Shown piece by piece: positions 7,574 to 63,858 of a DNA stretch of 64,000 nt. The position numbers were made by a program, and so were the translations under genes. Origin of the DNA: Candidatus Krumholzibacteriia bacterium. GTDB taxonomy: Bacteria > Krumholzibacteriota > Krumholzibacteriia > LZORAL124-64-63. The stretch's first letter is position 1, and each line of letters opens with the position of its first letter. The notes beneath the pieces are model-generated. The model was not told the DNA's origin. It did no database searches and saw nothing but the letters and a program-made list of their open reading frames with translations. The stretch spans positions 49,263 through 113,262 of the forward strand of contig JADGDU010000015.1 of NCBI GenBank assembly GCA_016744705.1, read 5' to 3'.

Positions 7574-7991
7574 ACATAGTCCTGAATGTCTGACACTACG
7601 CCCTGCCCTCCCAGCAATCAGAGGTGAACAGGGAGCCCGGAAGCCGCACAGAGCGTATCTCACGGTAGTCTGATTTATCCCCACGGCAGCAGATATCAGT
7701 TGTGGCCAGCACAGGGAAAGCTCAATACCTCAATTTGACCAACCTATAGGGCGACATCCTCCAATTGGAATTAAGTGTGCATTTTCCGAAACTAAGGGAA
7801 AGGTATTCCGTATAAGCCCCCTGTTGACGATGCTAGGGGGAAGCATTAGCTTGCATAAGTGAAAATTCCCAATCGTTCAGGTGCTGCTTTTGGCAGTGCC
7901 TATATTTTTTTGATTCCGGTACCCCAAGGGGGCGGGACCGGATACTTGTGATGTTTCGGTGTATTCCGGAATACCAACCATGGAGGCTTCA

Positions 7992-11955: not shown

Positions 11956-11990
11956 AGCCCGGGCCGTCATCAGACGGCCCGGGCTTTTCT
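11956..11990 (+). terminator. Rho-independent terminator after the M16 pair
   Basis: gagcccgggccgtc-atcag-acggcccgggct followed by tttct. Confidence 0.55.
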
Positions 11991-12061
11991 TGTGGTGGGC
12001 TTTCCCCTCTTGTGATACGATGGTTTCATATTTTGAGGGACTGTTCAAAGAGGGGGATTTC

Positions 12062-16495: not shown

Positions 16496-19400
16496 ATGTC
16501 TTTGGAAGCTTACAGTCCTGATAACCATGTCCGCATCGTCACGGCCGCCAGCTTGTTCGACGGCCATGACGCCGCCATCAATATCATGCGCCGCATTCTC
16601 CAGGCCAGTGGGGTCGAGGTCATCCACCTCGGCCATAACCGCTCGGTCAAAGAAATCGTAGATTGCGCCATTCAGGAAGACGCCCAGGGCATCGCCATCA
16701 CCAGTTATCAGGGTGGGCATGTGGAGTATCTGAAGTACATGTTCGATTTGCTGAAAGAGGCTGGGGCCAACATCCGCATCTTTGCCGGTGGCGGGGGGAC
16801 CATCTTACCGGTGGAGATTGATGAGCTGCAGGAGTATGGCATTGCCCGTATTTTTTCTCCCGACGACGGACGCAGCCTGGGCCTGCAAGGCATGATCAAC
16901 GAAGTTTTGCAGCAGTGCGATTTTGCCGTGGGGGTAGAGCCCTCAACTGCGAACTTAGCTGAAGACGGTGATCTCGGCAGGCATTTGAAACAACTGGAAA
17001 GCCGCGATCCCCGGGCTCTGGGACGACTCATCTCTGTAGCCGAAAACCACCCCGATGCCGGGGATGATCTGATGGAGGCGGTGCAGACTGCCGGCGCAAA
17101 AATTGCGGATGGAAAAACCATTCCGGTGCTGGGCATCACTGGCACTGGTGGTGCAGGGAAAAGCTCTCTGGTGGACGAACTCGTGCGGCGTTTCCTGGAC
17201 GATTTCAAAGACAAGACCATCGCCATTGTTTCGGTGGATCCTTCCCGGCGCCGCAGCGGTGGGGCGTTGCTGGGTGACCGTATCCGTATGAATGCCATTG
17301 ATGACCCCCGGGTGTATATGCGTTCTCTGGCCACTCGTCAGTCAAATCTGGCTCTCTCTAAGTACGTGCGCCAGAGCATCGACATCTGCAAAGCCGCCAG
17401 CTTCGATCTGGTCATTGTAGAAACCAGTGGCATCGGCCAAAGCGATACCGAAATCACCGAACATTCAGATGTGGCTTTGTACGTGATGACTGCTGAATAC
17501 GGGGCGGCCACCCAGCTCGAAAAAATCGATATGCTGGACTTTGCCGACCTCATCGCCATCAACAAATTTGACCACCGGGGCAGCCTTGACGCCCTGCGGG
17601 ATGTGCGAAAGCAATACCGCCGCAACCACAATCTTTTCGAAGGCGATGATGAAAGTTTGCCTGTGCATGGCACCATCGCTTCCCAGTTCAACGACCCCGG
17701 CATGAACCAACTTTACTTGTCCATCATGGACAGTTTGGTGGAGCGCACCGGTGCTGATCTGAAGTCTGATTTCCAACTGACTGAAGCCATGAACAAACGG
17801 GCCTTTATCATCCCGCCCGAACGGAATCGCTACCTGGCAGAGATTCGCGACGACAACCATCGGTACAATGATTTTGTGGACCAGCAGTGCGCCATCGCCC
17901 GTCAGATGTTTCAATTGGATGGGACCATCAATCTGCTCCGGGAGAAGGCCGAGGATGAGCCCTCTTATTTGGGCGAGCTGCAGTCTCTTTACACTGAGTT
18001 GGAAGACCGCCTGGACCGGGACTGCCACAAGCAGTTGAAAAACTGGCCCCAGTTGGTGGAAGCCTACAAGGCCGACAAATTTGTATTCCAAGTTCGCAAC
18101 AAAACCATCGAGCAAGACCTGACGAGCACTTCTCTGAGCCACACACGCATTCCCAAAGTTTGCCTGCCCCGGTACGAAGACTGGGGCGACGTTCTGCGTT
18201 GGATTTTGACTGAAAACGTACCCGGATTTTTTCCTTATGCCGCAGGGGTTTTCCCACTCAAGCGCGAAGGCGAAGATCCCACTCGCATGTTTGCCGGCGA
18301 AGGTGGCCCTGAGCGCACCAACCGCAGGTTCCACTATGTGTCGCTGGGTATGCCTGCGGCGCGTCTTTCCACGGCCTTTGATTCGGTGACGCTTTACGGT
18401 GAAAACCCTGATCCTCGCCCGGATATTTACGGCAAAGTGGGCAACAGTGGCGTGAGCGTGGCCACTGTGGATGATGCCAAAAAGCTATATTCCGGTTTTG
18501 ATCTGGCAGACCCCAAAACCAGTGTTTCCATGACCATTAATGGACCTGCGCCTATGATGTTGGCCTTTTTTATGAATGCGGCCATCGATCAGGGATGTGA
18601 AAAACACATCATTGAAAACGGTATGCAGGCCGAGGTGGAAGCAAAGATTGAAGCCATTTACAAAGGCAGGAAACGCCCTACCTATCAAGGTGATTTGCCA
18701 GAAGGCAATAACGGCCTGGGGTTGATGCTTCTGGGTGTTAGTGGCGACCAGGTCCTGGATGCGGAGGTTTACCAGAAGATCAAAGCCGAAACTCTGTGCG
18801 CGGTGCGGGGAACCATTCAGGCGGACATCCTCAAAGAAGACCAGGCCCAGAACACCTGCATCTTCTCTACGGAATTTGCCCTGCGCATGATGGGTGATAT
18901 CCAACAGAACTTCATCGACAGTGGTGTGCGGAATTTCTACTCTGTTTCCATCAGCGGTTACCACATTGCCGAGGCCGGAGCCAATCCCATCAGCCAGCTG
19001 GCCTTCACCTTGGCCAACGGGTTCACCTTTGTGGAGTATTATCTTTCACGGGGCATGTCTATCGACAGCTTTGCGCCCAACCTTTCTTTCTTCTTCAGCA
19101 ACGGCATGGATCCTGAGTATTCAGTTATGGGCCGGGTGGCGCGCCGCATTTGGGCCAAGGCCATGAAGATGAAATACGGGGGCAACGAACGCAGCCAAAA
19201 ACTGAAGTACCATATCCAAACCAGTGGCCGCAGCTTGCACGCCCAGGAAATCGCCTTCAACGATATCCGCACCACGCTTCAGGCTCTGTACGCCATTTAC
19301 GACAACTGTAACAGCTTGCACACCAATGCCTATGATGAGGCCATCACCACGCCCACCGAAGAGAGTGTGCGCCGGGCTATGGCCATCCAGATGATCATCA

Positions 19401-19906
19401 ACAAGGAGTTGGGTCTGGCGCGGAACGAGAACCCATTGCAGGGTTCCTTCATCATCGAAGAACTGACCGACCTGGTGGAAGAAGCGGTGCTGACAGAATT
19501 TGCCAGCATCAGTGAGCGCGGCGGTGTGTTGGGGGCCATGGAACGCATGTACCAGCGCACGAAAATCCAGGAAGAATCCCTGCATTATGAGTCCCTGAAA
19601 CATTCGGGAGAGATGCCCATCATTGGGGTCAACACGTATCTTGATCCGGCTGGTTCACCGACCATCATTCCCAGTGAAGTGATCCGCTCCACGGAGACCG
19701 AGAAACAGTATTCCATTGAGTCGCTCAATGCCTTCCATGAGCGCAATGCCGGTCAGGCTTCGGAAGCATTGGCCAAGTTGCGGCAGGTTGCGGTGGAACA
19801 TGGCAATACTTTTGAAGCCATGATGGAGACTTCCAAAACTTGTTCCATGGGGCAAATATCCCGGGCTCTTTATGGAGTGGGCGGGCAATATCGCCGGAAT
19901 ATGTAG
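16496..19906 (+). CDS. icmF: Fused isobutyryl-CoA mutase IcmF (N-terminal B12-binding domain + MeaB-like G-protein + methylmalonyl-CoA-mutase-like catalytic domain)
   Basis: The N-terminus '[19 protein letters not shown]...' is a B12-binding DxHxxG-type domain. The P-loop '[17 protein letters not shown]' is MeaB/ArgK-like. The C-terminal ~550 aa carry mutase TIM-barrel motifs. The 1136-aa length fits IcmF. Confidence 0.8.
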
Positions 19907-27723: not shown

Positions 27724-28983
27724 GTGCTGGATCGTAAATATCTTCGTGAAAACCAGGAATTGGTCACCCGGGCCGTGGCTCTGAAAAACGAATCCGTGGA
27801 CATTGGTGCCTATTATGCCAAGGACACCGAACGCCGGGCAGCCCTGCAGGAGATGGAAACACTCCAGGCCGAGGCCAACAAGGCCAACAAAGCCATCAGC
27901 GAGAAAAAGAAGGCCGGAGAGGATGCCTCCGGTGCCATCGCAGCCATGAAAGAAGTTTCGGGAAAGGTCAAAATTCTGAAATCCCGCGCTTCCGAACTGG
28001 AGGCCGAAGTGGATGCCCTTTATATGTGCATTCCCAACATTCCTCACGAAAGTGCTCCCGAAGGTGGCGAAGAGAATAACGAAACTGTACGCACCTGGGG
28101 CGAACCGGTGGATCCCGATTTTGAAGTATTGCCCCATTGGGAAATTGGCGAAGATCTGAACATTTACCATCCGGAGCGCAGCAGCCGCATGAGTGGTCGG
28201 GGTTTCACTGTGCTCTCCGGTGGTGGTGCCCGTCTTGAGCGAGCCCTCATCAATTGGTTTCTGGATGTGCACATGGAGCAGGGTTACACCGAATTCAGCA
28301 TCCCCTTCCTGGCCAACCGCACGGCTCTCACTGGCACCGGCCAGTTGCCCAAGCTGGAAGATGACATGTATTTGGCCACAGAGGATGACCTCTTTCTTAT
28401 CCCCACAGCTGAAGTGACCATCACCAACATACACATGAAAGAGACTCTCCAGCTGGAAAGCATGCCCCGGCAGTACACCGCAGCCTCGGCCTGTTTCCGG
28501 CGGGAAGCGGGAGCTGCGGGCAAGGATACCCGGGGCCTGGTCCGGGTGCATCAATTCAACAAAGTTGAAATGGTGAAGTTTGTGGATCCCGAGACTTCCT
28601 GGGATGAACTGGAGAAACTGACCGCCGATGCCGAATACTTGCTGCAGCAACTGAAATTGCCTTACCGTGTGCTGAGCCTGGCCACGGGCGATCTCAGCTT
28701 TGCCGCCTGCAAATGTTATGACCTGGAAGTGTATTCCGCTGGCGTAAAGTCCTGGCTGGAAGTCTCCTCCTGCAGCAATTTCCTGGATTTCCAGGCCCGC
28801 CGTGCCGGAATCCGTTTTAAGGGTGATGGACGCAAGGGTTATGTGCACACCATCAACGGGTCTGGCCTGGCGCTGCCCCGTATTCTGGTGGCGATCATGG
28901 AGAATTACCAGACAGCGGATGGCCGCATCCGCATCCCCGAAGTTTTGGTGCCCTACATGGGCGGAGCGGAGTTCATCGAGTAG
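27724..28983 (+). CDS. serS: Seryl-tRNA synthetase
   Basis: The N-terminal coiled coil and class II motifs (FRREAGAAGKDTRGLVRVHQFNKVE; GSGLALPR) are present. The GTG at 27724 gives M-LDRKYLREN, aligning with the canonical MLDxxLLR. An in-frame ATG at 27682 is the alternative. Confidence 0.85.
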   Translation: MLDRKYLRENQELVTRAVALKNESVDIGAYYAKDTERRAALQEMETLQAEANKANKAISEKKKAGEDASGAIAAMKEVSGKVKILKSRASELEAEVDALYMCIPNIPHESAPEGGEENNETVRTWGEPVDPDFEVLPHWEIGEDLNIYHPERSSRMSGRGFTVLSGGGARLERALINWFLDVHMEQGYTEFSIPFLANRTALTGTGQLPKLEDDMYLATEDDLFLIPTAEVTITNIHMKETLQLESMPRQYTAASACFRREAGAAGKDTRGLVRVHQFNKVEMVKFVDPETSWDELEKLTADAEYLLQQLKLPYRVLSLATGDLSFAACKCYDLEVYSAGVKSWLEVSSCSNFLDFQARRAGIRFKGDGRKGYVHTINGSGLALPRILVAIMENYQTADGRIRIPEVLVPYMGGAEFIE

Positions 28984-28984
28984 G

Positions 28985-30232
28985 ATGCTGACCAAAATTT
29001 GGCAAACAGGAATTCCCTGGCTGCGCAAGCGGTACGTATTCAATATTTATCTGCTTCTGGGCAGCCTGAGCATTGTTGTGGCCACGACCATTTTCACATT
29101 CAAGGTTTCCAAAAGTGTCGAGCGCCAAAGTTTCCTCACCACCAAGCTTTTGTCTGGTGTGGCCAGCCGTTTGTTCTCTGCTGAAAATGTTGAAGATGTG
29201 CTACCGATCATTGCCATCATCAACGAGAATGAAGTGCCTTTCATTCTGACAGATAATGCTGGGCGGCCCTTCATGTGGAACCCGCCGGTGATCGGAATCC
29301 CTTTGCCCAACTACCAGATTTTGCTCACGGAAAATGTGAATAGCACCCGCAATCCGGTGATTCTGGAAATCCTATCTCTGGCTGCGAAATATGACATGGA
29401 GCAAGAACCGTTTGCCATCGTGGACGAAAATGGAGTCCGCAAGGGAACCCTGCATTATGGTCGTTCGGCGTTGAGCCAGCGGTTGCGCATCATGCCCTAT
29501 CTTGAACTGATGATCATGGCGTTGTTTTTCCTGCTGATCCTTTGGGCGCTGCAAAGCAAGAAGGACGCCCAACAACAGGCCCTGTTCGCCGGAATGGCCA
29601 AAGAAACAGCGCACCAGTTGGGCACTCCATTGACCTCGATCATGGGCTGGATTGCTTTGTTGGAAGACAAGGTGGGAAAAGATAAAGAAGTTATGGTGGA
29701 GCTGAACCGCGATGTGGACCGGCTGAGCATGATCTCTACCCGATTTGGCCAGATAGGCTCGTTGCCCAAGTTGCAGGATACCGACCTGAACGAACTGGTG
29801 GACGAGTCGGTGGAGTATTTTCAAAAACGTCTGCCCCATCACGGGGGCCGTGTGCAACTCAGGCGTGAAGGCCAGGCCAGCCAGTTGGTGAGCTTTAACC
29901 GGGACTTGATGGGCTGGGTTTTGGAGAACCTGATCCGCAACGGCATCGACGCTTTGGTGGATGGAAAAGGCACCATCACCGTGCGGGTGGAGGATCATCC
30001 AGCGGGTGGTTTGTTGATCTCAGTGGCCGATACGGGCAAGGGTATCCCGGCCCGGGTGGGGAACAAAATCTTTGAACCCGGTTTCACCACAAAGAAGCGT
30101 GGCTGGGGCATGGGACTGGCTCTGGTCAAACGCATCGTCACCGATTACCACAGCGGCCGCATCACCGTGGAGGCCACCAGTAGCCACGGCACAACTTTTC
30201 ACGTGGTTTTACCGCCGATGTTGGAACAATAA
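28985..30232 (+). CDS. Sensor histidine kinase (2 TM, small periplasmic loop; PorY-like)
   Basis: The ATG at 28985 is 1 nt after the serS stop. TM1 is YVFNIYLLLGSLSIVVATTIFTF. The H-box is 'ETAHQLGTPLTSIMGW'. HATPase G-boxes are 'TGKGIP...GWGMGLALV'. Confidence 0.75.
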   Translation: MLTKIWQTGIPWLRKRYVFNIYLLLGSLSIVVATTIFTFKVSKSVERQSFLTTKLLSGVASRLFSAENVEDVLPIIAIINENEVPFILTDNAGRPFMWNPPVIGIPLPNYQILLTENVNSTRNPVILEILSLAAKYDMEQEPFAIVDENGVRKGTLHYGRSALSQRLRIMPYLELMIMALFFLLILWALQSKKDAQQQALFAGMAKETAHQLGTPLTSIMGWIALLEDKVGKDKEVMVELNRDVDRLSMISTRFGQIGSLPKLQDTDLNELVDESVEYFQKRLPHHGGRVQLRREGQASQLVSFNRDLMGWVLENLIRNGIDALVDGKGTITVRVEDHPAGGLLISVADTGKGIPARVGNKIFEPGFTTKKRGWGMGLALVKRIVTDYHSGRITVEATSSHGTTFHVVLPPMLEQ

Positions 30233-30243
30233 AGGAGCCTGTT

Positions 30244-31809
30244 TTGGCGTATAAAATTTTATGGATCGATGATCATATAGAAGAGCTTCGCTCGCACACC
30301 ATGTACCTGGGTGAGAAGGGGTACGAGGTGGAAGGAGTGACCAACGGCATGGATGGCCTGGCCATGCTCCGGGAACAAAATTTCGAAGCCATTTTGTTGG
30401 ATGAAATGATGCCTGGTATGGGTGGATTGGAAACCCTGGAAGGCATCCGGAAGATCGATCCGAACATTCCGGTGATCATGGTCACCAAAAGCGAAGCCGA
30501 AGATTTGATGACCCGGGCCATCGGCAAGCGCATTGACGATTACCTGGTTAAGCCGGTCAGTCCGATCCAGGTGTTGTCTGCCCTGAAGCGCCAGGTGGAA
30601 GCGCGCAAGCTGACCGGTGAAGAAGTCACCCGCGACTACATGAGCAACTTCATGGCAGTGACCGACCGCATTGCCCTGGCCAAGAGCCCTGCCGATTGGG
30701 AGGGCATTTATTCCGATCTCGTCACCTGGGGCATGGACCTTTTTCAGTACAGTGATCATGGGTTGCTGGAGACCCAGGGTGAACAATTGATGGCCGCTAA
30801 TTTGGCCTTTGGTAAATATGTAAGGGAGAATTATCACAGTTGGATTCACGCTAACCCAGAAACATCCGGCAAGGATATCCCTCTGTTCAGCCCCCGTGTC
30901 TATGAAGAACTCATTGAGCCGGAAGTCCAGCGCAGCCGGCAGGTTTTCTGGATCACCATCGATTGCATGCGTTTGGATCAGGTGCGAATGATAGAGCCGC
31001 TTCTGGAACCCTATTTCCACATCAATCGCCAGCATTACTGGTCCATGCTGCCTACGGCCACGCCCTATGCACGCAATGCCTTGTTTGCTGGGATGTATCC
31101 CGAGGATATTGCCAAAAACTATCCCAAATGGTGGTTGGATGGGCATCACGAAGGCAGCCGCAATGCTTACGAAGGAGAACTGCTGAACGAGCAGCTCAAT
31201 CGTATTGGCAGCGCTGCTTCCGGCAGTTGTAAATATTATAAGATTGCCGATGAACGGGATGTGGATCCTTTGCACCGGAACCTGGGCAGCATGGGTGATA
31301 CGCGTCTGGTGGCTGCTGTTTATAACTTCCTTGATATCATGGCCCATGGCCGCAGTCAGAACCGGATTTTGAAAGAGCTGGCGCCAAATGAAGCGGCCTT
31401 CCGGACCCTCATGCGCACCTGGTTCGAACACTCGAACCTTTTTGATATTCTCAAGAGTTTGTCCCGGCGCGATTGCACGGTGATTTTAACCACCGACCAC
31501 GGGTCCATGTTTTGCCGCCGCAGCATGAAAATCAGGGGCAATCGCGATACCAGCAGTAACGTGCGCTACAAATTTGGCGACAACCTGGGCACCGACGATG
31601 AACGCATCCTGTTGATGAAAAAACCTGGTGATTTCCGTTTGCCGGCCCATTCTTCCATTGAGAATTACGCCGTCACTTCAGAGAATTTCTATTTGGTGTA
31701 TCCCACGAATTTCCACGAGTACGAACGCCTGTACCGAGACAGTTTCCAACATGGAGGCATCAGCGTCGAAGAGATGATCTGTCCCTTTGTGACCCTGAGG
31801 CCGAGGTGA
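30244..31809 (+). CDS. Response regulator with REC domain fused to PglZ (alkaline-phosphatase-superfamily) domain; PorX-like
   Basis: The REC domain is 'ILWIDDH...LLDEMMPGMGG...VIMVTKS' with the phospho-Asp in 'LLDEMMPG'. The C-terminal ~380 aa carry 'ITIDCMRLDQ' and 'LTTDHGS' metal-site motifs of PglZ. The 521-aa size is the same as P. gingivalis PorX. Confidence 0.7.
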   Translation: MAYKILWIDDHIEELRSHTMYLGEKGYEVEGVTNGMDGLAMLREQNFEAILLDEMMPGMGGLETLEGIRKIDPNIPVIMVTKSEAEDLMTRAIGKRIDDYLVKPVSPIQVLSALKRQVEARKLTGEEVTRDYMSNFMAVTDRIALAKSPADWEGIYSDLVTWGMDLFQYSDHGLLETQGEQLMAANLAFGKYVRENYHSWIHANPETSGKDIPLFSPRVYEELIEPEVQRSRQVFWITIDCMRLDQVRMIEPLLEPYFHINRQHYWSMLPTATPYARNALFAGMYPEDIAKNYPKWWLDGHHEGSRNAYEGELLNEQLNRIGSAASGSCKYYKIADERDVDPLHRNLGSMGDTRLVAAVYNFLDIMAHGRSQNRILKELAPNEAAFRTLMRTWFEHSNLFDILKSLSRRDCTVILTTDHGSMFCRRSMKIRGNRDTSSNVRYKFGDNLGTDDERILLMKKPGDFRLPAHSSIENYAVTSENFYLVYPTNFHEYERLYRDSFQHGGISVEEMICPFVTLRPR

Positions 31810-36123: not shown

Positions 36124-37113
36124 GTGGCTGCTGAGTTTTATTTGGGTGCAGATATAGGCGGCACGGGCGTCAAATACATCATCACCGATGATCAGGGGGG
36201 CATCTTTCACCAGGGCGAAGTGCCCACCGATCCCCACAGTGCCAAGCGCACCCTGGGTCGGCTGGCCATGGAAGTGGCCGAAAGAATTTCCCCACCCTCA
36301 GATTCAGACGAAGCCACCTTTTTCCGACTGGCGGCCGTGGGGCTGGCCTGCGCAGGTATTATCAATCCAGCCAGTGGTCACCTGGGGCGCTCTCCTAATT
36401 TACCTGGCTGGGAAGACACCAACCTGAAGCGCATCATCGCCAACGAATTTCAGGACAAACCTTCAGTGGTGGCTAACGATGTGAACGCGGCTCTTTTTGG
36501 AGAGTTCAGTTTTGGTGCCGGTCGCGGCTGTCGTAATCTGGTGATGATTGCATTGGGCACCGGTGTGGGTGGTGGCATCATGCTGGACGGGGCCCTGGTG
36601 GTAGGCACTCATAACGGAGCGGCGGAAATTGGGCACATGGTTTTGGATCCTTCAGGCCCAACCTGCACTTGCGGTGGGGTGGGCTGTCTGGAAGCCTGGG
36701 CCGGCAGTGTGGCCATCCTCAAGCAAGCCCGCCTGTTGGCGAAAGTGGAACTGAAAGAAACGGCTCTCGCCCAACTGGTCCTGGAAAAAGGCGAACATTT
36801 GAGTACCCGCGATCTCAGCCTTTTGGCCGAACAAGGTGATGCGGCCTCCCTGGCTCTTTTTGCCGAAGTGGGACACAGATTGGGGCATGCTGTGGGCAAT
36901 TTGGTCAATATTTTAGATCCCGATAGAGTCATTATCGGGGGAGGGGTGGCCCAGGCTGGCGATTTAATCCTGGGTTCCTGCCGGGCACTGGTGCCGGCTA
37001 TGGTCCTGGCTGAAGAGGCCAAAGACATTCCCATTGTCTCCGCTGAATTGGGCCCCATGTCCGCCGCTGTGGGTGCGGCCTGTCTGGCGCGTCAAGAGCA
37101 GGCCGGAGGCTGA
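36124..37113 (+). CDS. ROK family sugar kinase (glucokinase-like)
   Basis: ADIGGTGVKY...GHMVLDPSGPTCTCGGVGCLEAWAG is the ROK signature with a CxCGxxGC zinc motif. Confidence 0.75.
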   Translation: MAAEFYLGADIGGTGVKYIITDDQGGIFHQGEVPTDPHSAKRTLGRLAMEVAERISPPSDSDEATFFRLAAVGLACAGIINPASGHLGRSPNLPGWEDTNLKRIIANEFQDKPSVVANDVNAALFGEFSFGAGRGCRNLVMIALGTGVGGGIMLDGALVVGTHNGAAEIGHMVLDPSGPTCTCGGVGCLEAWAGSVAILKQARLLAKVELKETALAQLVLEKGEHLSTRDLSLLAEQGDAASLALFAEVGHRLGHAVGNLVNILDPDRVIIGGGVAQAGDLILGSCRALVPAMVLAEEAKDIPIVSAELGPMSAAVGAACLARQEQAGG

Positions 37114-40100
37114 TGAAAAATTCTGGAGGCAGTCATTTTTTCAGAACTCTGACCGGATTGTTCCGGTTTGTTCTGATGCCTTCTTTAGTCATGATGATTT
37201 TGGTGGGGCTTTGGCCCCCGACCTGGAGTGCCGCTGCAGAATCCAAAGATAAACCCCAACCGACCCTGCGCCGCACCCGAATCGATGCCGACCGTTCCAT
37301 CGATCGAATGGTCAATGGCGAACGCATCACTTTTCTGCTGGGCAATGTTTTTATCGACCGCGACAGCTTGACTGCTGCCGCTGATACGGTGCGCCATTAC
37401 CGGGACAGGGATGTGTACGAGTTTCTGGGCAGTGTGGTACTGACCCGGGATGATGGTGTGCTCACCTGCCTCCGCGCCTTCCACAACCAAGCCGAGGGCA
37501 CTTCAGACTTTTACGGAGATGTGCGGCTGACCGAAGGCGATGTCATCGGAACCGGCCTCAAGGGTGAATCTCGTTCCGATGGCCGCTTCTTCAAGTTGAT
37601 CAATGAAGCCTTACTGGTCACTCCCGACTACACAGTGCGTGGTGATACCATCATTCGTGACCGCCAGGATGGCACCGGCGAAGCTTTCGGAAACGTGCGT
37701 ATCATGGAACCGGGTTCTCTGAACCTGGTGACGGGTGAGCATGCTTTTTTTGATGGCGAAACAGATCTGGCGGAAGTGGACATTAACCCGGTCATGACCA
37801 GCCGGGAAACTGAAGGCAGCCTGTTGGTGAGCAGAGCTCGGGTGATGCGATTTTTCCGGGCCGAAAATAAAGTGGTGATGATTGATTCAGTGCGCATCCA
37901 CCAGGATCAGACTCTGGCTGTGGCCGATACTGCCATCGCCTATGGTCGGGAGCACATGGTTCTTACGGGCAACCCGCGCGTGAATATGAGCGATTCCAAT
38001 ACCATGATTGGTGATCGCATCGAATTTTTCTATCTGGAAGGCAAGCTGGATCGGGTGATTTTGGTAGGATCGGCCCGCATGGAAGACAGCACTCCTGACA
38101 GTCTGGCTGCTATCTACAAGGGCCTTCCCCGCATGGATATTCTGGAAGGCGATAGCATCAGCATCCAGTTTGTGGATGAAGAGATCCATCAGAGCGTGGT
38201 TGTAGGCTCGGCACACAGTCTCTACACGCCCATGGATTTGAATGATGAAGTGGCCACCAATGATGTGACGGGCGATACCATCACTATCGATTTCAAGAAT
38301 CGCCGGGTGGGAAGGGTGCACGTTGTGGGTAACATGTCCGGCAACTACCGCTTTGCCAAGCTGGCGGCCATGCGGGATATGCTGGGACAATCGGAACGCC
38401 TTGTGGATATGCTACGCCGCAGCTCCCAGGACAGCACCGCTTTTGCCGACTCGTTGCTGGCTGCGGGCGTTGATACCAGTGTGGTGGCCTTGGCTGACTC
38501 CCTGATCATCGCCTACGCCGATTCACTCACCGGTGTTTTGGGTATGGCCTCTTTTCTAAATCCGGAAGCGGCCCCGGCCATGGCGGCCAATGCCATCGAT
38601 TCTCTGATGACTGCGGCCATGGATTCTTTGGCCTCAGCCGGCTATGACACCACCGCTTCTGGGTTGGATTTCATCGCCAACGCCGAGGATGTAAGATACA
38701 CCGGCCGTTCGGTGGATTTTGAAATGGATAAAAAATCCATCGATATCCTCGACAATGCTGTGCTGGAATTTGGCACCATGAAGCTGAGCGCCCAGCACAT
38801 TAACCTCAGCACTGTGGACCGAGAACTTTATGCTGAGGGCGACCCGCTGATTGAAGACAGCGAAGACATTGCCGGTTATCAGATGGGGTACGATTTTGCC
38901 AACCGCACCGGAGCGGTGAAGCGGGGTGTGACCTCTTTCGACGGGTATTTCTACGTTGGTGATGAGATCCAACGTTTCCCCGATACAACTCTGAAAATTT
39001 GCGATGCCCGCATGACCAGTTGCGACCTTGAAGAACCCCATTACCACTTCTGGGCTGACAAGATGAAGATGCGCATGGGGGATAAGGTGGTGGCTAAGCC
39101 TATCGCGCTGCACATCGGCAAGGTTCCGGTTTTTGCTTTGCCGTTTTATTTCAAATCCCTGAAAGAGGGCCGGCAATCGGGCATCCTTTTTCCCTCCTTT
39201 GATTTCGGTTGGTCCAGCCGCGACGGACGTTATATACGTGACTTTGGTTATTATTGGGCCACCAACGACAACATGGATTTTGTCTTTGAAGCGGACTATA
39301 ACGAACGCAAGGATTTTGCCTACCGCGTCTCCAATCGGTATGTCAAACGGTATGCATTCAACGGGGGATTCGACTATTCCAAGAAGATTAGTCTGGGAGA
39401 TACAGAGCGCGAAGAGTGGCAGTTTCGCTGGAACCACAACCAACCCATTCTCTTTGACGATTATAAGTTTCGCAGTGATGTGCGCATGGCCAGTACCTCT
39501 CTGAGCACCAACGATCTTTCGGGAAACAATGATCGGGATGTGGTCAGTGGCGAGATGAAATCCAGCATGTATCTGAGCCGGAATTATTCTTTCATGAGCA
39601 GCAGTTTGGATGCCTCTCGCAAAGAATACGTCAACGCCGAGGATGATGATGATGCTACCGATGCGGCCCTGTACAACATGACTCTGCCGTCCATGTCATT
39701 CAACTTCCGGGAGTTCAATCTGGCCAAGGCTTTGCGTGGTGGAGAGCAGGGATCCTTCCTGGGGAACATGGCTCGCAATACCAGTTTCAAGCAGGGGTAC
39801 TCTGTCAAAATGTACCAATCGGGATATGAGTTGCACAAAGAGCGCAATTACGACGCGGGTGGCAATTGGTCCCTGGCTCTGCGCCCCCCTCGTGTCTCTA
39901 TCTTCAATGTGAACTTCAGCGCCAGTGCCGGCCATTCCTGGAATCGCGATAGCAGTTATGGTCAATTCTATGTGGAGGACACCGACACCACCGGGCATCT
40001 CGAAGATTATGACACCGTCACGGAAGAGACCAACTCCAATGTACGCTTCAGTGCGGGGTTAGGAACGAATCTCTACGGGACTTTTCCTTTGAACGTGGGG

Positions 40101-41066
40101 CGGCTGAAAGCCCTGCGCCACACCATGCGCCTTAACAGCAGCTACAGCCTTTCTCCCGGCCTCGGTGGGGGCAAGCAAAACCATAGCACCAGCATTTCAC
40201 TCACTATGAACAACCGCCTGGATTTGAAATATCTCTCTGGTGCTGCCGACACCACCCTGACGGAGAAGAAGCTGGATGGTTTGTTTGACTGGTCACTGAG
40301 CACCAATTACAGCCCCAAAAATGAACCAGGTGACCGCTGGGGAAACATTAATAGTGGATTGTCCATCCAACCGGGACAGAGCCGCGCTTTGCGTTTGAAA
40401 GTTACCAATTCCATCGACCCTAAAAATCTGGCTTTAATCTCCACTCGTTTCACTTATGGACTGAGTTTCTCTGGCCGGGCCGATGTAGGACCCGTGCCCC
40501 AGGAAGCTGTGCCGGAACGTAACAGGAGGCTGGATCAATTGGGTGTGGAGATGGGGGCTCCCGTTGATTCTCTGGCCATAGAAGACGAATTCCTGGACCA
40601 GGGATATGAAGACGATCCGGAAGAGTTTTTCGATGGTGAAGAGAGTTCATTTTACGATTTCTACAATCGCCAGGGGCGCCAAGGCGAGGGAAAAGATGAG
40701 GATCCCACCGAAGGGGGACGTTTCATTCCCTTCAATATGAATGCCTCGTTTTCTTACAGCTACAACAACGACACTCACACCCGGCGGGCCACCACCAACA
40801 TGGGCGTAACGGCGACCTTGACCAAAAGCTGGAAATTTAATTACACCGGATCCTTTGATTTGGTCACCGGGGCTCCCACCCGTCAGCAGTATGGGTTGAA
40901 AAAAGACCTTCATTGCTGGGCTCTTGAGTTCAACCGGACCGTCAGCAACGTAAATTCCGAATTTGGATTCCGAATTTACCTGAAATCCATTCCGGCGCTG
41001 AAAATGACCCGGGGACAGGAAGGCAGCATGGGGGCCCTGGGCAGCGGCTTGAGCGGCGGGTTCTAA
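37113..41066 (+). CDS. lptD: LPS-assembly outer-membrane protein LptD (extended N-terminal OstA-like beta-jellyroll repeats + C-terminal beta-barrel)
   Basis: A signal peptide is present. There are tandem OstA-like modules (GNVFIDRDSLTAAADTVRHY...). The barrel-region stretch 'CDARMTSCDLEEPHYHFWADKMKM...PVFALPFYFKSLKEGRQSGILFPSFDFGWSS...YYWATNDNMDF' is collinear with E. coli LptD 'C..C...[23 protein letters not shown]...YYWNIAPNMD'. The ATG overlaps the ROK stop by 1 nt. Confidence 0.75.
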   Translation: MKNSGGSHFFRTLTGLFRFVLMPSLVMMILVGLWPPTWSAAAESKDKPQPTLRRTRIDADRSIDRMVNGERITFLLGNVFIDRDSLTAAADTVRHYRDRDVYEFLGSVVLTRDDGVLTCLRAFHNQAEGTSDFYGDVRLTEGDVIGTGLKGESRSDGRFFKLINEALLVTPDYTVRGDTIIRDRQDGTGEAFGNVRIMEPGSLNLVTGEHAFFDGETDLAEVDINPVMTSRETEGSLLVSRARVMRFFRAENKVVMIDSVRIHQDQTLAVADTAIAYGREHMVLTGNPRVNMSDSNTMIGDRIEFFYLEGKLDRVILVGSARMEDSTPDSLAAIYKGLPRMDILEGDSISIQFVDEEIHQSVVVGSAHSLYTPMDLNDEVATNDVTGDTITIDFKNRRVGRVHVVGNMSGNYRFAKLAAMRDMLGQSERLVDMLRRSSQDSTAFADSLLAAGVDTSVVALADSLIIAYADSLTGVLGMASFLNPEAAPAMAANAIDSLMTAAMDSLASAGYDTTASGLDFIANAEDVRYTGRSVDFEMDKKSIDILDNAVLEFGTMKLSAQHINLSTVDRELYAEGDPLIEDSEDIAGYQMGYDFANRTGAVKRGVTSFDGYFYVGDEIQRFPDTTLKICDARMTSCDLEEPHYHFWADKMKMRMGDKVVAKPIALHIGKVPVFALPFYFKSLKEGRQSGILFPSFDFGWSSRDGRYIRDFGYYWATNDNMDFVFEADYNERKDFAYRVSNRYVKRYAFNGGFDYSKKISLGDTEREEWQFRWNHNQPILFDDYKFRSDVRMASTSLSTNDLSGNNDRDVVSGEMKSSMYLSRNYSFMSSSLDASRKEYVNAEDDDDATDAALYNMTLPSMSFNFREFNLAKALRGGEQGSFLGNMARNTSFKQGYSVKMYQSGYELHKERNYDAGGNWSLALRPPRVSIFNVNFSASAGHSWNRDSSYGQFYVEDTDTTGHLEDYDTVTEETNSNVRFSAGLGTNLYGTFPLNVGRLKALRHTMRLNSSYSLSPGLGGGKQNHSTSISLTMNNRLDLKYLSGAADTTLTEKKLDGLFDWSLSTNYSPKNEPGDRWGNINSGLSIQPGQSRALRLKVTNSIDPKNLALISTRFTYGLSFSGRADVGPVPQEAVPERNRRLDQLGVEMGAPVDSLAIEDEFLDQGYEDDPEEFFDGEESSFYDFYNRQGRQGEGKDEDPTEGGRFIPFNMNASFSYSYNNDTHTRRATTNMGVTATLTKSWKFNYTGSFDLVTGAPTRQQYGLKKDLHCWALEFNRTVSNVNSEFGFRIYLKSIPALKMTRGQEGSMGALGSGLSGGF

Positions 41067-41686: not shown

Positions 41687-43060
41687 ATGATCAAGCTTAA
41701 GGGTTTGTCGGGCCTATTGGGTCTGGCGACATTAGCCCTGTTGTTGCTCTCAGTGGCCTCTGGGCCAGGAGAAAGCACTGACGGCACTGTTTTTGCTGCC
41801 GAAGGCGGAAATTGGAAAAACGTCACGGTGTTGTACTTAAACGACGTGAAGGGGAAAATAGAACCCTGTGGCTGAAAGTCTAAGCAGCGTGGCGGGGTTG
41901 CCCGGAGGGCGACCTACTTTGACTCTGTTTGGAATGAAGACGTGCCTGTTCTCATGGTCGACGGCGGTGACCTTTTTGGTCGCCGTAATAGAAACGAACA
42001 GCACCAGACCCGTTTCCTGTGTGAATGCACAGCTGATTTCGGATACGATGGCATCGGCCTTGGTGAGGCCGACCTGAACTATGGTCTGCCATTTTTGATG
42101 GAAATGATTGAGAAATACGATTTGCCTTTCACCAATGCGAACGTGGTCAACCGGGAGACGGGCGAACTGATCCTTCCCGAATACCTGGTTGTGGAGAAAA
42201 ATGGCGTCAAATTTGGTTTGGTCAGTGTGCTGGGTGAAAACTATAAAATTATCACCATGACGGACACCGACAGCGGACTGGATGTTAAGGACCCTGTGGC
42301 TACTTTGCGTGCCTTGCTGCCTCGCATGCGTGAGGAAGTGGATACCGTAGTCTTGCTGGGGCATTTGGGTGAAGGCAATACCGACACGGTGCTGCGTGAG
42401 GTCAAGGGTATCGATGTCTGTGTCATGGGACACTCTCATCGTACTTTGAAAAACGAACGCATCGTGGAAGATACGATTGTACTGGGTGCGCCCCACGAAG
42501 GTCGTTATGTGGGCCGGGCCAATATCTTCATCGAAGAGTCTGACGGCAGAGTCATGGCTGTGGATGTGGAATTGACCAGTCTGGATGATGCTGTGGAACA
42601 CGAGCCAGATATGTATGCCCGGGTTCAGGATTATCATGCCAGTTTCGAAGAATTTAAGCTGGCCAAGCGAGCGGCCTTTCCCAGAGATTTGGGATCTGAA
42701 AAAGAAACATATCTGGGTGCCCGGTCCTGTAAAAGCTGCCATGAGGATACTTGGGAAGCCTATACGGCCTCCTCTCATAGCCAGGCTTACACGACCATCC
42801 GGAAAAAGGGTCAAAACAACGAGCCGGAATGCATTCTTTGTCATACCACGGGGTACCGCTACCAAAACGGGTATTCTGAAGAGCGTCCTTTCAACCAACT
42901 GGTGAATGTGCAGTGTGAATCCTGTCACGGCTACGGCACTGAGCACTCCAGAGATGGCAAATGGCGGGCTCAGGCTCAGGATGCCTGTATCACATGTCAC
43001 GACCAGGAAAACAGTCCCGAGTTTGATTACACTACTTATTGGGAAAAAATCAAACACTAG
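41687..43060 (+). CDS. Secreted fusion: degenerate 5'-nucleotidase/calcineurin-like metallophosphatase domain + C-terminal tetra-haem cytochrome c. The single reading frame is interrupted by an in-frame TGA at 41873-41875 (selenocysteine candidate or disruption)
   Basis: The signal peptide MIKLKGLSGLLGLATLALLLLSVASG is followed by 'VTVLYLNDVKGKIEPCG-TGA-KSKQRGGVARRATYFDSVWNEDVPVLMVDGGDLFG', which is collinear with the 5'-NT 'HTNDxHGxLEP...GGxARxAT...DAGD'. The ORF-track entries 41681 and 41942 are in the same frame. A 'GHSH' motif is retained. The C-terminus has 4x CxxCH (CKSCH, CILCH, CESCH, CITCH). Confidence 0.55.
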
Positions 43061-52653: not shown

Positions 52654-53838
52654 ATGTTCCAGAAGAAATCATTCCACCTTGTAGCCATAGCTTTGATGCT
52701 GGCGGTCGTCATGACCGGCTGCAGTGATAGTGACAGCAATCCGTCCGAAACTTCTATGACTGGCACTGATGTTTACGAGGGTATGGATTTCACTTTGCCT
52801 TACGCTGGATTGACCATCTCTGATGAATACGAAGCCTTCGACGACGACTCTTTGTTGGAGATGATGGTAGCCGAAGATGAGGATGTGTACGAAGATCCGG
52901 TGGGGGATGATCCGGAAATTCAGGAGTTACAAAACCAGGGAAACCGCCCGGGGAATGCCAACGATCCCACTCGGCCACGTTTCACTTTCCTGCGGCTGCG
53001 TTGGGGCATGGTTCGCGGCCCTGAAGATTCCCTGCTAGTGCCCCTGCCTCCCTGTGATATATTGGATTGGTCTGGTGAAATCAGCACTGATCGGGGGATT
53101 CTCCTGGTTCGGCGTGTTCTGCGCTTTGAGCGTCCCATGGACCACTTGGTTCTTCCCCGTGAAGATCGCCATACTTTAAATTTCACCTCGCACACGGCCT
53201 GCCATTACGATGGTTTGCTGCTGGAAATTATCGAGCGTCCTGGAGATTATAGCCTGGAAAATGATGAGCCAAACAGGTTGCACATCACCGCTGGCCCTTA
53301 TGCTGGCGAATATGAAATCGAAGCTTTGGCCGGCCTGAATGAAACCATTGAGGTGGATGACCAGGGTAACCTGATGCAGTTGAATGGATTTAATCTGAGT
53401 GATACCGCCTACTGCCCCAAGGGCTTTTTGGCTGGGCGTTTCCGTCATTTTCCCGATGATCGTGGCCAAGGGGAGCTGGATGAGAATGACCCGGGCACTC
53501 ACATCGGACGCATGACTGGTGTCTACACCGATCTGACTGGACGCATCAGTGGTTTCATGCGCGGGGGATATGGCCTCGATTCTGAAGGAAACCGGGTCTT
53601 CTTCGCTAAGTATATCGGGCGACGAGGTGGTTTCCGCGGGTTGATGACTGGGACTTGGGAACCATCCGATAACCCCCGTGATTTGAGCACTTTCGAGGGC
53701 CATTGGATCACCGCCTCCGGTGAGGTCGAGGGCTTGCTGGGGGGCACTGCCCAGGCTGTGGACGACTACCCGGGCGGGTTCTATGAAGGTCGTTGGACTG
53801 CCATCTGTGACGGCGAGGCTGAAGAGCAAATTCAGTAG
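52654..53838 (+). CDS. Lipoprotein of unknown function, immediately upstream of the C25 peptidase pair
   Basis: The signal peptide plus lipobox is 'LAVVMTGC|SDSDSN'. An acidic N-terminal region is followed by a ~300-aa domain. An AGGAGGGG RBS is present. Confidence 0.5.
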   Translation: MFQKKSFHLVAIALMLAVVMTGCSDSDSNPSETSMTGTDVYEGMDFTLPYAGLTISDEYEAFDDDSLLEMMVAEDEDVYEDPVGDDPEIQELQNQGNRPGNANDPTRPRFTFLRLRWGMVRGPEDSLLVPLPPCDILDWSGEISTDRGILLVRRVLRFERPMDHLVLPREDRHTLNFTSHTACHYDGLLLEIIERPGDYSLENDEPNRLHITAGPYAGEYEIEALAGLNETIEVDDQGNLMQLNGFNLSDTAYCPKGFLAGRFRHFPDDRGQGELDENDPGTHIGRMTGVYTDLTGRISGFMRGGYGLDSEGNRVFFAKYIGRRGGFRGLMTGTWEPSDNPRDLSTFEGHWITASGEVEGLLGGTAQAVDDYPGGFYEGRWTAICDGEAEEQIQ

Positions 53839-53871
53839 ATGATCAGAATCTAACATTTTCGTGAGCTTTTT

Positions 53872-53906
53872 CGGAAGGGCGGCCCCACAGAGCCGCTCTT
53901 CTTTTG
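53872..53906 (+). terminator. Terminator-like hairpin followed by a T-rich tract
   Basis: gaagggcggcc-ccacagag-ccgctcttc (one mismatch), then ttttgatgttttggtgttttgtttg. Confidence 0.4.
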
Positions 53907-54148
53907 ATGTTTTGGTGTTTTGTTTGCGAAAAAGATGCATTTGTTTTGTGGGGTTCGGTAACTTCCTAAGTTGCAGCACGTTAGCTGTAGTCGCTGGGAG
54001 GCATTGGCCCCAAAGCATGTGCCCTTGACCACCAGCTCCTGCCTAATCTGCAAGGGTTTTCGCCAAAACTCCGGCAGAAATGCTAAAATTACTTATGATT
54101 TTTTAAAGAGATTTTGAGTGTGACGGTTTTACGTAACCGGAGGTTGCA

Positions 54149-57100
54149 ATGCGGAAAGTGCTGTTTTTGGTTTGGGTGATTGTTCTGACGGTGGGGTCTG
54201 CCTCCGGGGCCACCGCTGGATGGATCAGTTTCGACAAACAGGAAATGGCATTCCCCCAGATCCAGGCCAGGCGACAATCTGAGAGTCTCACTGTCGTGGA
54301 TATCACCATGAGCGGCCTGGAAAGCAATGTCGTGATGGTCCAGGGGCAACCCCATGATCAGATTCGCATTCCCGGGCATTGGTTCACTCTGGAAGCAGGT
54401 CAGCCGGAACTTCCTTTCATCACCAGCAGCCTGGTCATTGCCGACAGTGGCAATCCGGTGGTGCGGGTGCTCAATAGCACCTGGCGGGAAATTTCTGCTC
54501 ATCCGGTTCTCCCATCCAAGGGTTCTATTCTGCGCACGGAAGATCCGGCCACAGTGCCTTACGCTTTTGGTGCTGTTTATCAAAGCAGGGATGTCTTTCC
54601 CGCATCTGAGGTCCAACTGAACGAACCATACATCATGCGTGACGTGCGAGGCGTGAGTTTGCGCATCAACGCCGTGCGCTGGGATGTGGAGCGGGGCGTC
54701 TTGCTGGCCTTGGAAAGCATGACCCTGGAAGTGGAAACTTCCGGTGCGGGGGGAATCAACTCTCGGCAGGGAAAAATGCAGAGTGGCATCGACACCCAGT
54801 TCGCCCAACTTTATAATCAGGCTTTTGACAATTACGAGAACCCCGCCAAATACAACATGGTGGCCGTTGATGGCCGCATGCTGGTAGTGTGCCACGATTC
54901 CTTTTTGGGCACCATTGATCCCTTTGTGCAATGGAAGCGTTCCACCGGCATAGATGTGCAGGTCATCAGCACTGGTAGTGTAGGGGGAACCTCCCTGGGT
55001 ATCCAGAGCGCCATCGATTCTCTGTATGCCGAACCAGAAGGATTGACTTATGTGATTCTAGTGGGAGATCAAGCTCAAGTGCCCTCCTACACCGGAACCT
55101 TCGAAGGCGCTGATGACGATACTCGCTATGGCAATATCGAAGGTGATGACCTTTATCCAGACCTCTTCGTGAGCCGCATCTCGGGCTCCAACCCGGTGGA
55201 TATTCAAACCCAGATCAACAAATTTATTCGTTATGAACGGGATCCTGATGCTGGTGCCGATTGGTATCATCTCGGGGCGGTGTTAGCCTCCAGCCAGGGC
55301 GACCCCTCGGACTCTGAGCGTGCCGGTTGGTTGCGCGATGACATGTTGAATTACACCTTCACTCAGGTGCACGAAGTTTTTCAGCCCGAAGGTGATACCG
55401 CTGATATTACCGACGCCGTCAATGGCGGAGTCAGTCTGATCAATTATCTCGGCCATGGCTCGGGCACGTCCTGGACCAATCCCCACTTTACGCAGGCCGA
55501 TATCAATGCCCTGAGCAATGGATGGCAGAACCCCTGGATTTTGGACGTGAGCTGTTCCAACGGAGACTTCTCCACCGACGAATGTTTTGCCGAAGCCTGG
55601 ATGCGTGCCGGTGACCCGGCCCAGCCCCAGGGAGCTTTGGCCACTTACAGCGCATCCACCACAACGCCCTGGATTCCCCCCTGTGTGATGCAGGCTGAAG
55701 CAGTGGATCTGATGGTGGCGAACCAGGCCACGGTGTTGGGCTCTCTGTATTTTCACGGCATCATGAAGGTGATGGACGTATACCCGGGCAATAGCCAACT
55801 GGTGGAACAGTACAATGTTTTTGGCGATTGTTCGTTGCAGATTCGCACCAATACACCAGTGGTGCCGGCGATGCAGTATGACGATGTACTGGCCCTGGAG
55901 GCCACGGTGTTTCCCGTGGATACAGGTCTTGAAAATTGTCGGGTGGCTTTGTACAGCGGGCAGCAATTGCACGGTGTGGGCGTAACCGATGCGCAGGGTC
56001 ATGTGGACATTTCCCTGACCAACCCAGTGACTGTTCCCGGCCCGGTGAGTATGACGGTAACAGGGTACAATGTATTGACCCAGGTCCTCACTCTGCAAGC
56101 GGAAGTCCCCGTGGTGGTGGACATTCAGCCGTCCTCAATTCCCGTGGGTCAGACTACGGATATAACGGTGACTTTGTCAGATTCACCAGCCCTGGCTTCC
56201 CTGGAAAATGTGACGGTTACGGTGGAAGGTTTTGGTGTGCAAGCTGTGCAGGGGCTCACCGGTGTTGACGGTGTGGCTACCATCAGTGTGACTCCTGAAT
56301 TTGGCGAAAATTTGACTGTGCGGGGCGTGGAGTTCGGCGCCGGATATGACATGTTCAGCGTAGATTTGGGCGTCAGCGGTGCCTTGGATCTGACCCAGGC
56401 AAATATAGTTGCTGAAGTGGCTGCCATCGGTATGATCGATACCCTGACTCCGGATTGGGAAGGCACCATTACTGGTACCAGCGATGTGGCTGATTTCGAC
56501 ATTAAAATCAAGGGGCCCGGCCTGGATGTTCTGGCCAGGGGATCTGGATACTCCCTGGTGCAAAATGTGACTCCGCTGGGCACGGGTGTGGTTTATGCCA
56601 CCTTGCTGAAAACCGGTTACAACATCTATCAATCGGAAATCCAAGTGATTCCTGCCTATGGAACCCTCGGGGGATCGATCACGGCTTCTGGTGGAGCAAC
56701 TCTTGATGGAGTGCGCGTTTTTGGATTCCACACGGGAGATGATCCCCAGGGAGAACCAGTCTTTGATCTGGTCAGCGATGCCACCGGCGAATTCAGCAAT
56801 CCGGTCCAACTGCCTTCCGGAAGTTACGATTTGTATGCCCGTAAATACGGGTATTTGGATTATGCCGAAACCTTTGTGCTGGAGCACGGGGCCAATGACC
56901 ATGATGTGGTCATGGACCTCTCTCCAGTGGGAGTTCTTACCGGACAAATTTCAGCTCTTGAAGGTGGTGCGGCCATCAATGCCACCATCCAGGTTATCCG
57001 CCTGGATAACAACGACCAAATGGCCTTGGTGATGACCGACGAACTGGGGCGATACACCTGTCCGGAATTGCCTTTTTATGACTACCGGATGATTGTGACC

Positions 57101-63858: not shown

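Follow-up and report, generated by a model that had tools for sequence, protein, structure and literature searches.

A tandem pair of probable gingipain R-like zymogens with a shared protease tail in a Candidatus Krumholzibacteriia genome

Two adjacent genes, A and B, on the forward strand of a 64,000-nucleotide (nt) stretch of contig JADGDU010000015.1 from a Candidatus Krumholzibacteriia bacterium (the whole stretch is referred to below as the window) probably encode pre-pro peptidases of MEROPS family C25 (clan CD). These would resemble gingipain R, be exported by a type IX secretion system (T9SS), carry an accessory C-terminal tail and derive from an old duplication; we give this reading as a whole a probability of about 0.8. 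A and B are real but fairly ordinary members of a large, uncharacterised and automatically annotated family of gingipain R-like zymogens.

Catalytic and latency apparatus

All coordinates are positions in the window and refer to the + strand unless stated otherwise. Gene A (54149..58837), the fast-evolving paralogue, encodes a pre-pro C25 peptidase of 1562 amino acids (aa) that is identical to the database protein P0001. Gene B (59164..63858), the conservative paralogue, encodes one of 1564 aa that equals the database protein P0019. The longest open reading frame (ORF) for B spans 59098..63858 (+; 1586 aa); however, its start codon is likely the ATG at 59164 rather than the ATG at 59098, since the former has a GGAGG Shine-Dalgarno sequence 7-8 nt upstream, is aligned with Met1 of A (BLASTP) and gives a protein that matches P0019 exactly over 1564 aa. 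The alternative ATG at 59098 sits inside a promoter-like motif, AAATGGTAAAAT (59096-59107). The initial annotation, made from the sequence, had described A and B as tandem collinear paralogues of ~1560 aa, and this was borne out by pairwise alignment, in which 59% of positions were identical and 74% positive, with two gaps in 1564 columns (BLASTP). A stop-free antisense ORF inside B (60202..63606, − strand, 1134 aa) was rejected as a gene and regarded as a codon-usage artefact, because it follows the antisense frame that is aligned with the codons, TTA/CTA/TCA codons occur only five times in B, and the orthologue at the related locus L001 does not conserve the ORF.

Domain scans recovered the same set of domains above the Pfam gathering score in both proteins, namely Propeptide_C25, Peptidase_C25, Peptidase_C25_C, CarboxypepD_reg (three stretches), P_proprotein and FlgD_ig, and the C25 peptidase and P-domain that had been called from the sequence were both among them. 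The Peptidase_C25 match reached 171.4 bits in A and 173.7 bits in B (cutoff 23), Propeptide_C25 scored 61.8 and 56.4 bits, and Peptidase_C25_C scored 28.2 and 30.2 bits (cutoff 25).

From the N-terminus, each protein starts with a putative signal peptide, recognised by inspection only: the n-region is basic, the core is hydrophobic and the site is of the A-x-A type. In A, this Sec-type signal (54149..54211) ends at the MRKVLFLVWVIVLTVGSASG-A junction, and in B (59164-59232) at the …NSFAQA-EW junction; A23 and W25 are near-invariant in the family alignment. The C25 prodomain follows (54254..54844 in A and 59263-59859 in B; Propeptide_C25) and, in A, ends right before the pro/mature junction. 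When A was aligned to the prodomain of RgpB (4ief_A; E-value (E) 4e-17), its inhibitory-loop Arg129 (54533-54535) stood opposite the Arg of 'VISRAENP'. This Arg was present in 87 of 87 homologues, and its counterpart in B is encoded at 59548-59550. The pro/mature junction of A, Lys234-Tyr235 (54848-54853), aligns with the RgpB maturation site Arg229-Tyr230. Across the family, the junction residue was Lys in 82 and Arg in 6 of the 88 sequences, and the Tyr that follows was invariant (88 out of 88); in B, the junction Lys is encoded at 59863-59865.

The C25 catalytic domain occupies 54878..55840 in A (Pfam and RgpB alignment) and 59893..60858 in B (Pfam and conservation counts). Alignment to RgpB (1cvr) extended over the catalytic domain and the immunoglobulin superfamily (IgSF) domain with E 6e-57, and conservation was counted along the RgpB alignments and an 88-sequence family alignment. 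RgpB His211 corresponds to A His436 (55454-55456; 60469-60471 in B) and Cys244 to A Cys469 (55553-55555; 60568-60570 in B), so the catalytic residues assigned in the initial annotation, His in GHGSGTSW and Cys in SCSNGDF or ACLNGDF, were correct. Similarly, the S1 residue Asp163 corresponds to A Asp388 (55310-55312; 60325-60327 in B) and the lid residue Trp284 to A Trp508 (55670-55672; 60685-60687 in B). Each of these four residues was invariant (88 out of 88 sequences). At the position of RgpB Glu152, A has Gln383 (55295-55297), and B keeps Glu (60310-60312). Finally, a C25 C-terminal Ig-like (IgSF) domain was found by Peptidase_C25_C at 55877..56083 in A, where the RgpB alignment spans it, and at 60871-61098 in B.

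In RgpB, prodomain Arg126 enters the S1 pocket and forms a salt bridge with Asp163, and the role of Trp284 has also been described (PMC4357240). The whole RgpB-type latency and activation logic appears to be conserved in A and B, and basic P1 specificity is therefore the natural inference: by analogy with RgpB, both enzymes would cleave after basic residues, Arg being the most likely and Lys tolerated.

The GATL domain and the divergence of the two copies

Behind the catalytic unit, the initial annotation had seen a long array of Ig-like and CarboxypepD_reg-like domains. Such an array is present, but it is broken by a ~240-aa alpha/beta domain, here called GATL, which had been overlooked. The beta-rich linker array in front of it (56099..57163 in A and 61114-62178 in B) consists, in A, of ~185 aa with only weak Ig-like matches followed by two CarboxypepD_reg domains; aa 651-835 of A are covered only by weak Big_3_5 and TIG matches (E 0.03-0.3, Pfam). 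GATL itself lies at 57176..57898 in A (aa 1010-1250) and 62191-62913 in B, with E-G-G at the nucleophile-elbow position, and is followed by the third CarboxypepD_reg (57908..58132 in A, with the best Pfam stretch at aa 1254-1328; 62923-63147 in B).

The fold of GATL is that of the class I glutamine-amidotransferase-like / ThuA-like superfamily. No sequence family was matched in Pfam (E ≤ 10), in NCBIfam or in a PDB-sequence profile search, all of which gave chance-level results only; the candidates TiaS_FLD (E 0.065) and zeta toxin (E 0.02) were rejected as such. When 1.84 billion representative proteins were searched with a profile, there were 734 matches at E ≤ 1e-3, 197 of them at E ≤ 1e-30. 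In the apparently complete proteins examined from this family of ~734 representative clusters, GATL was located upstream of a T9SS sorting domain, and some proteins held two to five GATL copies. Giant proteins of the same C-terminal domain (CTD) type carry two to five copies (P0121, 2831 aa; P0130, 2335 aa; P0126, 2879 aa), and no protease domain was recognised in P0121. Among 111 GATL copies from diverse architectures, E119-G120-G121 was conserved in 99-100%, and His158, Asp182 and Asn240 in 99%; in the numbering of A, the Glu of this motif is Glu1128. The E-G-G motif directly follows strand beta4, as read from the secondary structure of the model rather than from a superposition. The catalytic signature of class I glutamine amidotransferases was not found: Glu-Gly-Gly occupies the elbow, and there is no Cys-His-Glu triad.

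GATL might be a second active or ligand-binding site, such as a metal-dependent amidase or peptidase or a glycan pocket, which would cooperate with the catalytic head in a bifunctional protein. The very strong conservation of its residues over the 111 copies points in this direction, as does the predicted location of E-G-G after beta4, which is the nucleophile position in class I amidotransferases. Moreover, GATL occurs nearly always in CTD-bearing proteins, most of which, among those checked, are proteases. However, it has neither a Cys nor a Ser nucleophile and no sequence-level match to a solved or curated family, and we regard a second site as possible but unlikely. It is just as tentatively that we consider GATL an undescribed protease-associated family in which the invariant E-G-G, His, Asp and Asn residues form a real active or ligand site. 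If they do, the secreted proteases would be bifunctional, or would be targeted by GATL to a specific substrate or surface polymer. GATL is the least understood part of A and B and, as an uncharacterised but strongly conserved domain, a target for structural and biochemical work.

Turning to the origin of the pair, a neighbour-joining tree of 85 full-length homologues placed the A-type and B-type proteins in sister clades, with single-copy relatives as the outgroup. A single gene occupies the syntenic site in L003 (50% identity), two genes occupy it in L001, L004 and L005, and the A/B pair was found on six contigs. Judging from sequence comparison, A and B are best described as the products of a single, old tandem duplication in which the promoter region was copied as well. 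The region upstream of A (53857..54089) contains the motifs TTTCGTGAGCTTTTTCGGAAGG (53857-53878) and AAATGCTAAAAT (54078-54089), together with a terminator-like hairpin (53873-53902). The first of these motifs, in the form TTTCGTGAGCTTTTNCGGAAGG, lies upstream of both genes (53857-53878 for A and 58872-58893 for B), with 0 matches expected by chance in the window. A -10-like motif with TG, AAATGGTAAAAT, was found ~60 nt before both start codons (54078-54089 for A and 59096-59107 for B); the upstream motif named beside this -10-like sequence is TTTCGTGAGCTTTT. Both motifs are kept in L001, at both copies, and in the single-copy locus L003. Since these upstream motifs are common to A and B, the duplication would have carried regulatory DNA with it.

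The two copies have since diverged at unequal rates. Identity among A proteins was 65.5% versus 74.9% among B proteins, identity to the outgroup was 50.8% for A and 57.5% for B, and A was the faster-evolving copy in every domain. Gene conversion between A and B was considered and rejected, because A-B identity within a genome equalled A-B identity between different genomes in every domain. At the RgpB Glu152 position, Glu was found in 15 of 15 clade B proteins and in the single-copy relatives checked (P0024, P0030 and P0035); clade A had Gln in 7 and Leu in 1 of its 8 members. Other single-copy clades have Leu, Gln or Gly at this position, and the Glu152-equivalent is therefore dispensable in the family. 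In RgpB, Glu152 reportedly helps to orient the catalytic His, according to the original structure paper. B keeps the ancestral state, and the faster-diverging A has lost the Glu152-equivalent; this suggests that its activity or regulation has changed, not that its function is gone.

The same substitution, together with the faster evolution of A in every domain, could also be taken as a sign that copy A is a catalytically impaired pseudo-protease, serving as adhesin, as decoy or in the regulation of B. We find this distinctly improbable. All 8 clade A proteins keep the His/Cys dyad, the S1 Asp and lid Trp, the Arg of the prodomain and the K-Y junction, the catalytic domain is the best conserved part of A (81% A-A identity), and the residue that A lost, a Glu retained in B and in the checked single-copy relatives, is one that the family can do without. 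A and B, which combine a one-residue difference in the active site with unequal rates, constitute a natural experiment on the third 'triad' residue of C25 peptidases.

The C-terminal cassette and secretion

The proprotein-convertase-type P-domain of the initial annotation (58151..58513 in A and 63169-63531 in B) was supported by both sequence and fold. P_proprotein (PF01483) matched A with 53.4 bits (E 2.8e-14) and B with 71.4 bits (E 7.1e-20), against a cutoff of 21. The model of the C-terminal part of A (aa 1331-1562) had a predicted local distance difference test (pLDDT) score of 92.5. In fold searches, which were run against PDB libraries only, Foldseek matched its P-domain to Aeromonas sobria serine protease (ASP; 3hjr, E 1.7e-7), Kex2 (2id4, E 1e-6) and furin (E 1.7e-6).

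Classification of GATL-containing proteins with local hidden Markov models covered 76 representatives that were apparently complete, in that they begin with Met and carry the same CTD. A C25 head was present in only 26 of these 76. The order that recurred among them was GATL, CarboxypepD_reg, P-domain and CTD, or GATL, CarboxypepD_reg and CTD, and in some relatives the P-domain was swapped for a MAM domain. Pfam scans of twelve non-C25 examples identified fungalysin-like heads (FTP and M36) in four (P0171, P0161, P0182 and P0256) and an FTP propeptide only in P0168. The other heads were S8 subtilases (2 proteins), a C11 clostripain (1 protein) and C25 fragments (2 proteins), with none recognised in the remaining two. 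Thus, GATL, CarboxypepD_reg, the P-domain (or MAM) and the CTD form a portable cassette that is found behind C25, M36, S8 and C11 heads. Since the cassette also stands behind M36, S8 and C11, the P-domain is not specifically paired with C25. The ~900-aa tail is accessory, and the cassette therefore serves something common to secreted proteases rather than C25 catalysis specifically; candidate roles include substrate or surface binding, spacing and stability. The cassette also explains why a 'convertase' P-domain is found on a cysteine protease, and why some annotation pipelines mislabel such proteins as subtilisin-like convertases.

A P-domain that is genuine by sequence and fold, and that is kept in most members of the family, could in principle act as it does in kexin and furin, packing on the catalytic domain and being needed for its folding and activity, which would make A and B C25/convertase hybrids. 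This is very unlikely. No S8 domain was detected in A or B (Pfam), and the P-domain begins ~770 aa past the C25 domain, seven domains away from it. The same block follows M36 and S8 heads, MAM replaces the P-domain in other relatives, and a Krumholzibacteria subclade (P0048, P0057 and P0069; ~1355 aa) lacks both the third CarboxypepD_reg and the P-domain but keeps the rest.

The accessory tail of A and B ends in a probable T9SS type A CTD (58583..58834 in A and 63607-63855 in B). The initial annotation had called a Por_secretion tail, and here the outcome depended on the model: TIGR04183 (NCBIfam, T9SS type A) was passed by both proteins, with 32.4 bits in A and 23.2 bits in B against a cutoff of 23, but Pfam Por_Secre_tail was not. 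The CTD of A is predicted to form a seven-strand beta-sandwich, with the seven strands at residues 144-230 of the modelled C-terminal segment; type A CTDs have been described as seven-strand sandwiches (PMC10202324). Elsewhere in the window, a full-length PorX equivalog with a receiver and a PglZ domain (30244..31809, +; NF052313, 618.4 bits versus 300) adjoins a histidine kinase gene (28802..30232, +), which together make up a PorY/PorX-type T9SS regulatory pair outside the Bacteroidota. A further gene (11990..15190, +) encodes a 1066-aa protein with choice-of-anchor D / HYDIN-like Ig domains and a FlgD_ig/T9SS type A CTD (TIGR04183, 23.1 versus 23), which is a putative third T9SS cargo in the window. 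Export of A and B by the T9SS is well supported but not proven; the support comes from the CTDs that pass TIGR04183, the PorX equivalog with its kinase and the third CTD protein in the window. That A and B are instead part of the T9SS machinery, as PorU-type sortases, which are also C25 relatives, is highly improbable: both have weak partial matches to NF033707 and NF052324, but these reach only 51.5/52.4 bits (versus 420, with the best stretch in the CTD) and 30.2/35.4 bits (versus 450, over a short catalytic stretch), and A and B carry a gingipain-type prodomain and an RgpB-like S1 pocket and belong to a family that is duplicated and modular, as cargo would be.

For secreted cargo proteases with an accessory tail, the following sequence of events can be proposed. 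The Sec signal peptide would bring each protein to the periplasm, where, by homology with RgpB, the prodomain would maintain latency, with Arg129 of A placed in the S1 pocket against Asp388. The type A CTD would route the protein through the T9SS and would then be removed, leaving the enzyme surface-attached or released. Cuts after Arg129 and at Lys/Arg234-Tyr235 would free an endopeptidase with the His436/Cys469 dyad, which would then cleave after basic residues, most likely Arg, with Lys tolerated. Its likely role would be the extracellular degradation of protein for nutrition, and genes of the A/B type probably contribute to extracellular protein degradation in this uncultured phylum.

Several points weigh against parts of this reading. 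Por_Secre_tail (PF18962) remained below its gathering score in both proteins (23.0 bits in A and 17.7 bits in B versus 27), B passed TIGR04183 by 0.2 bit only, and the core T9SS components (SprA/Sov, PorK/L/M/N and PorU/V) were not found within the 64-kb window. The near-invariant polar residues of GATL suggest a specific site rather than a passive spacer in the tail. Of the 88 sequences, 82 have Lys at the junction, although RgpB is described as exclusive for Arg (PMC4357240); as the junction is mostly Lys, either Lys may be accepted by the S1 pocket or a different protease may be responsible for the cut. Specificity, zymogen activation and secretion are all deduced from homology to RgpB, and the role in nutrition is a guess that draws on the family and the type of organism.

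Family, neighbourhood and known systems

A protein search found ~87 protein clusters with the same full-length Pfam set (35-79% identity), and 331 encoding loci were found when one genome was scanned for each species; Krumholzibacteriota and Eisenbacteria make up most of both. Among the loci, the closer ones were labelled Krumholzibacteriota or Krumholzibacteriia, some carried the automatic label 'Fibrobacteraceae', and loci at ~30% identity were labelled Eisenbacteria. The gene neighbourhood is kept in many loci, in the order RNase T … HisKA, histidine kinase/response regulator, FUR, alanine racemase, TerB, lipoprotein and C25; for the part of the genome beyond B, the relatives L001 and L003 were used. 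Given these clusters, loci and the kept neighbourhood, the architecture of a C25 peptidase with a P-domain is common in these lineages. The initial annotation had considered it an unusual composite, which holds against the characterised gingipains only, as ~87 clusters and 331 loci share it. Among the named database relatives, which come from Krumholzibacteria and Eisenbacteria metagenome-assembled genomes and have automatic annotations, the architecture is the same and we observed no difference of substance. These relatives are called 'C25 family cysteine peptidase [Candidatus Krumholzibacteria]' or 'T9SS type A sorting domain-containing protein'. The Joint Genome Institute (JGI) name, 'subtilisin-like proprotein convertase family protein', is due to the P-domain and gives the wrong catalytic class. 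In the literature searched, no relevant paper was found on Krumholzibacteria with a T9SS or gingipain, or on C25 peptidases with a P-domain, and a search on the T9SS in other phyla belonging to the FCB (Fibrobacteres-Chlorobi-Bacteroidetes) group gave nothing useful. To our knowledge, gingipains have been studied almost only in Porphyromonas. Here, an RgpB-like catalytic and latency apparatus is conserved in a deep-branching uncultured phylum, where the gene is syntenic and often duplicated.

As had been annotated, the pair lies directly downstream of a lipoprotein gene (52654..53838), which encodes 394 aa with the lipobox VMTGC (…VVMTGC) and for which no family match was found. The terminator-like hairpin at 53873-53902 is located between this gene and A, so A probably has its own promoter. 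A lipoprotein gene was directly upstream of the C25 gene in 25 out of the 77 related loci examined, including L001, L003, L004, L006 and L008, and was missing at several loci where TerB and the peptidase are present. A link between the lipoprotein and the short forms that lack a P-domain is not claimed, as several loci with a P-domain likewise have no such lipoprotein. Other genes observed in the window included two adjacent M16 (insulinase-type) peptidase genes (7959..9743 and 9798..11930, +), a gene for a 1136-aa protein that joins a B12-binding domain to a MeaB-type GTPase and a methylmalonyl-CoA-mutase domain in an IcmF-like architecture (16496..19906, +), an unusually long LptD homologue (37113..41066, +; 1317 aa), and a multihaem cytochrome c in which the motifs are MtrC/c554-like (41942..43060, +).

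Among characterised proteins, RgpB (gingipain R2 of Porphyromonas gingivalis, MEROPS C25; 1cvr and 4ief) shares with A and B the order of prodomain, catalytic domain and IgSF domain, the His211/Cys244 dyad, the S1 Asp163, the lid Trp284, the inhibitory Arg and a basic residue before the junction Tyr, as well as a putative Sec signal and a CTD that is probably of the T9SS type A. A and B differ from it in holding ~830 extra residues between the IgSF domain and the CTD (Ig-like, three CarboxypepD_reg, GATL and P-domain), in a junction residue that is mostly Lys rather than Arg, in the Gln of copy A at the Glu152 position, and in a host of the Krumholzibacteriota type rather than a member of the Bacteroidota. 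Kgp was also similar to A and B, in the catalytic domain (E 7e-19) and in the prodomain (E 3e-14). The S1 pocket follows the RgpB pattern, unlike the layout in Kgp: Asp stands at the 163 position, and the position three residues past the lid Trp has no Asp. RgpA and Kgp are large C25 proteases in which a long non-catalytic extension and a CTD come after the catalytic unit; in contrast to theirs, the extension of A and B has no haemagglutinin/adhesin (cleaved-adhesin) domains (Pfam scan). The initial annotation had described A and B as much larger than the Rgp/Kgp catalytic units. They are indeed far larger than RgpB, but the comparison is a weak one, since they are presumably about as large as the RgpA and Kgp polyproteins.

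The kexin/furin convertases and ASP have the same P-domain fold, and A and B match their family (PF01483). In these proteins the P-domain directly follows an S8 catalytic domain, whereas in A and B it is distal to a C25 head and part of a cassette shared by four protease classes. Lastly, ThuA-like and class I glutamine amidotransferase-like proteins (2gk3, 4jqs, 3rht and 1t0b) share the fold of GATL without a detectable sequence relationship; GATL differs from them in being extracellular, embedded in T9SS cargo proteases, and in carrying Glu at the elbow.

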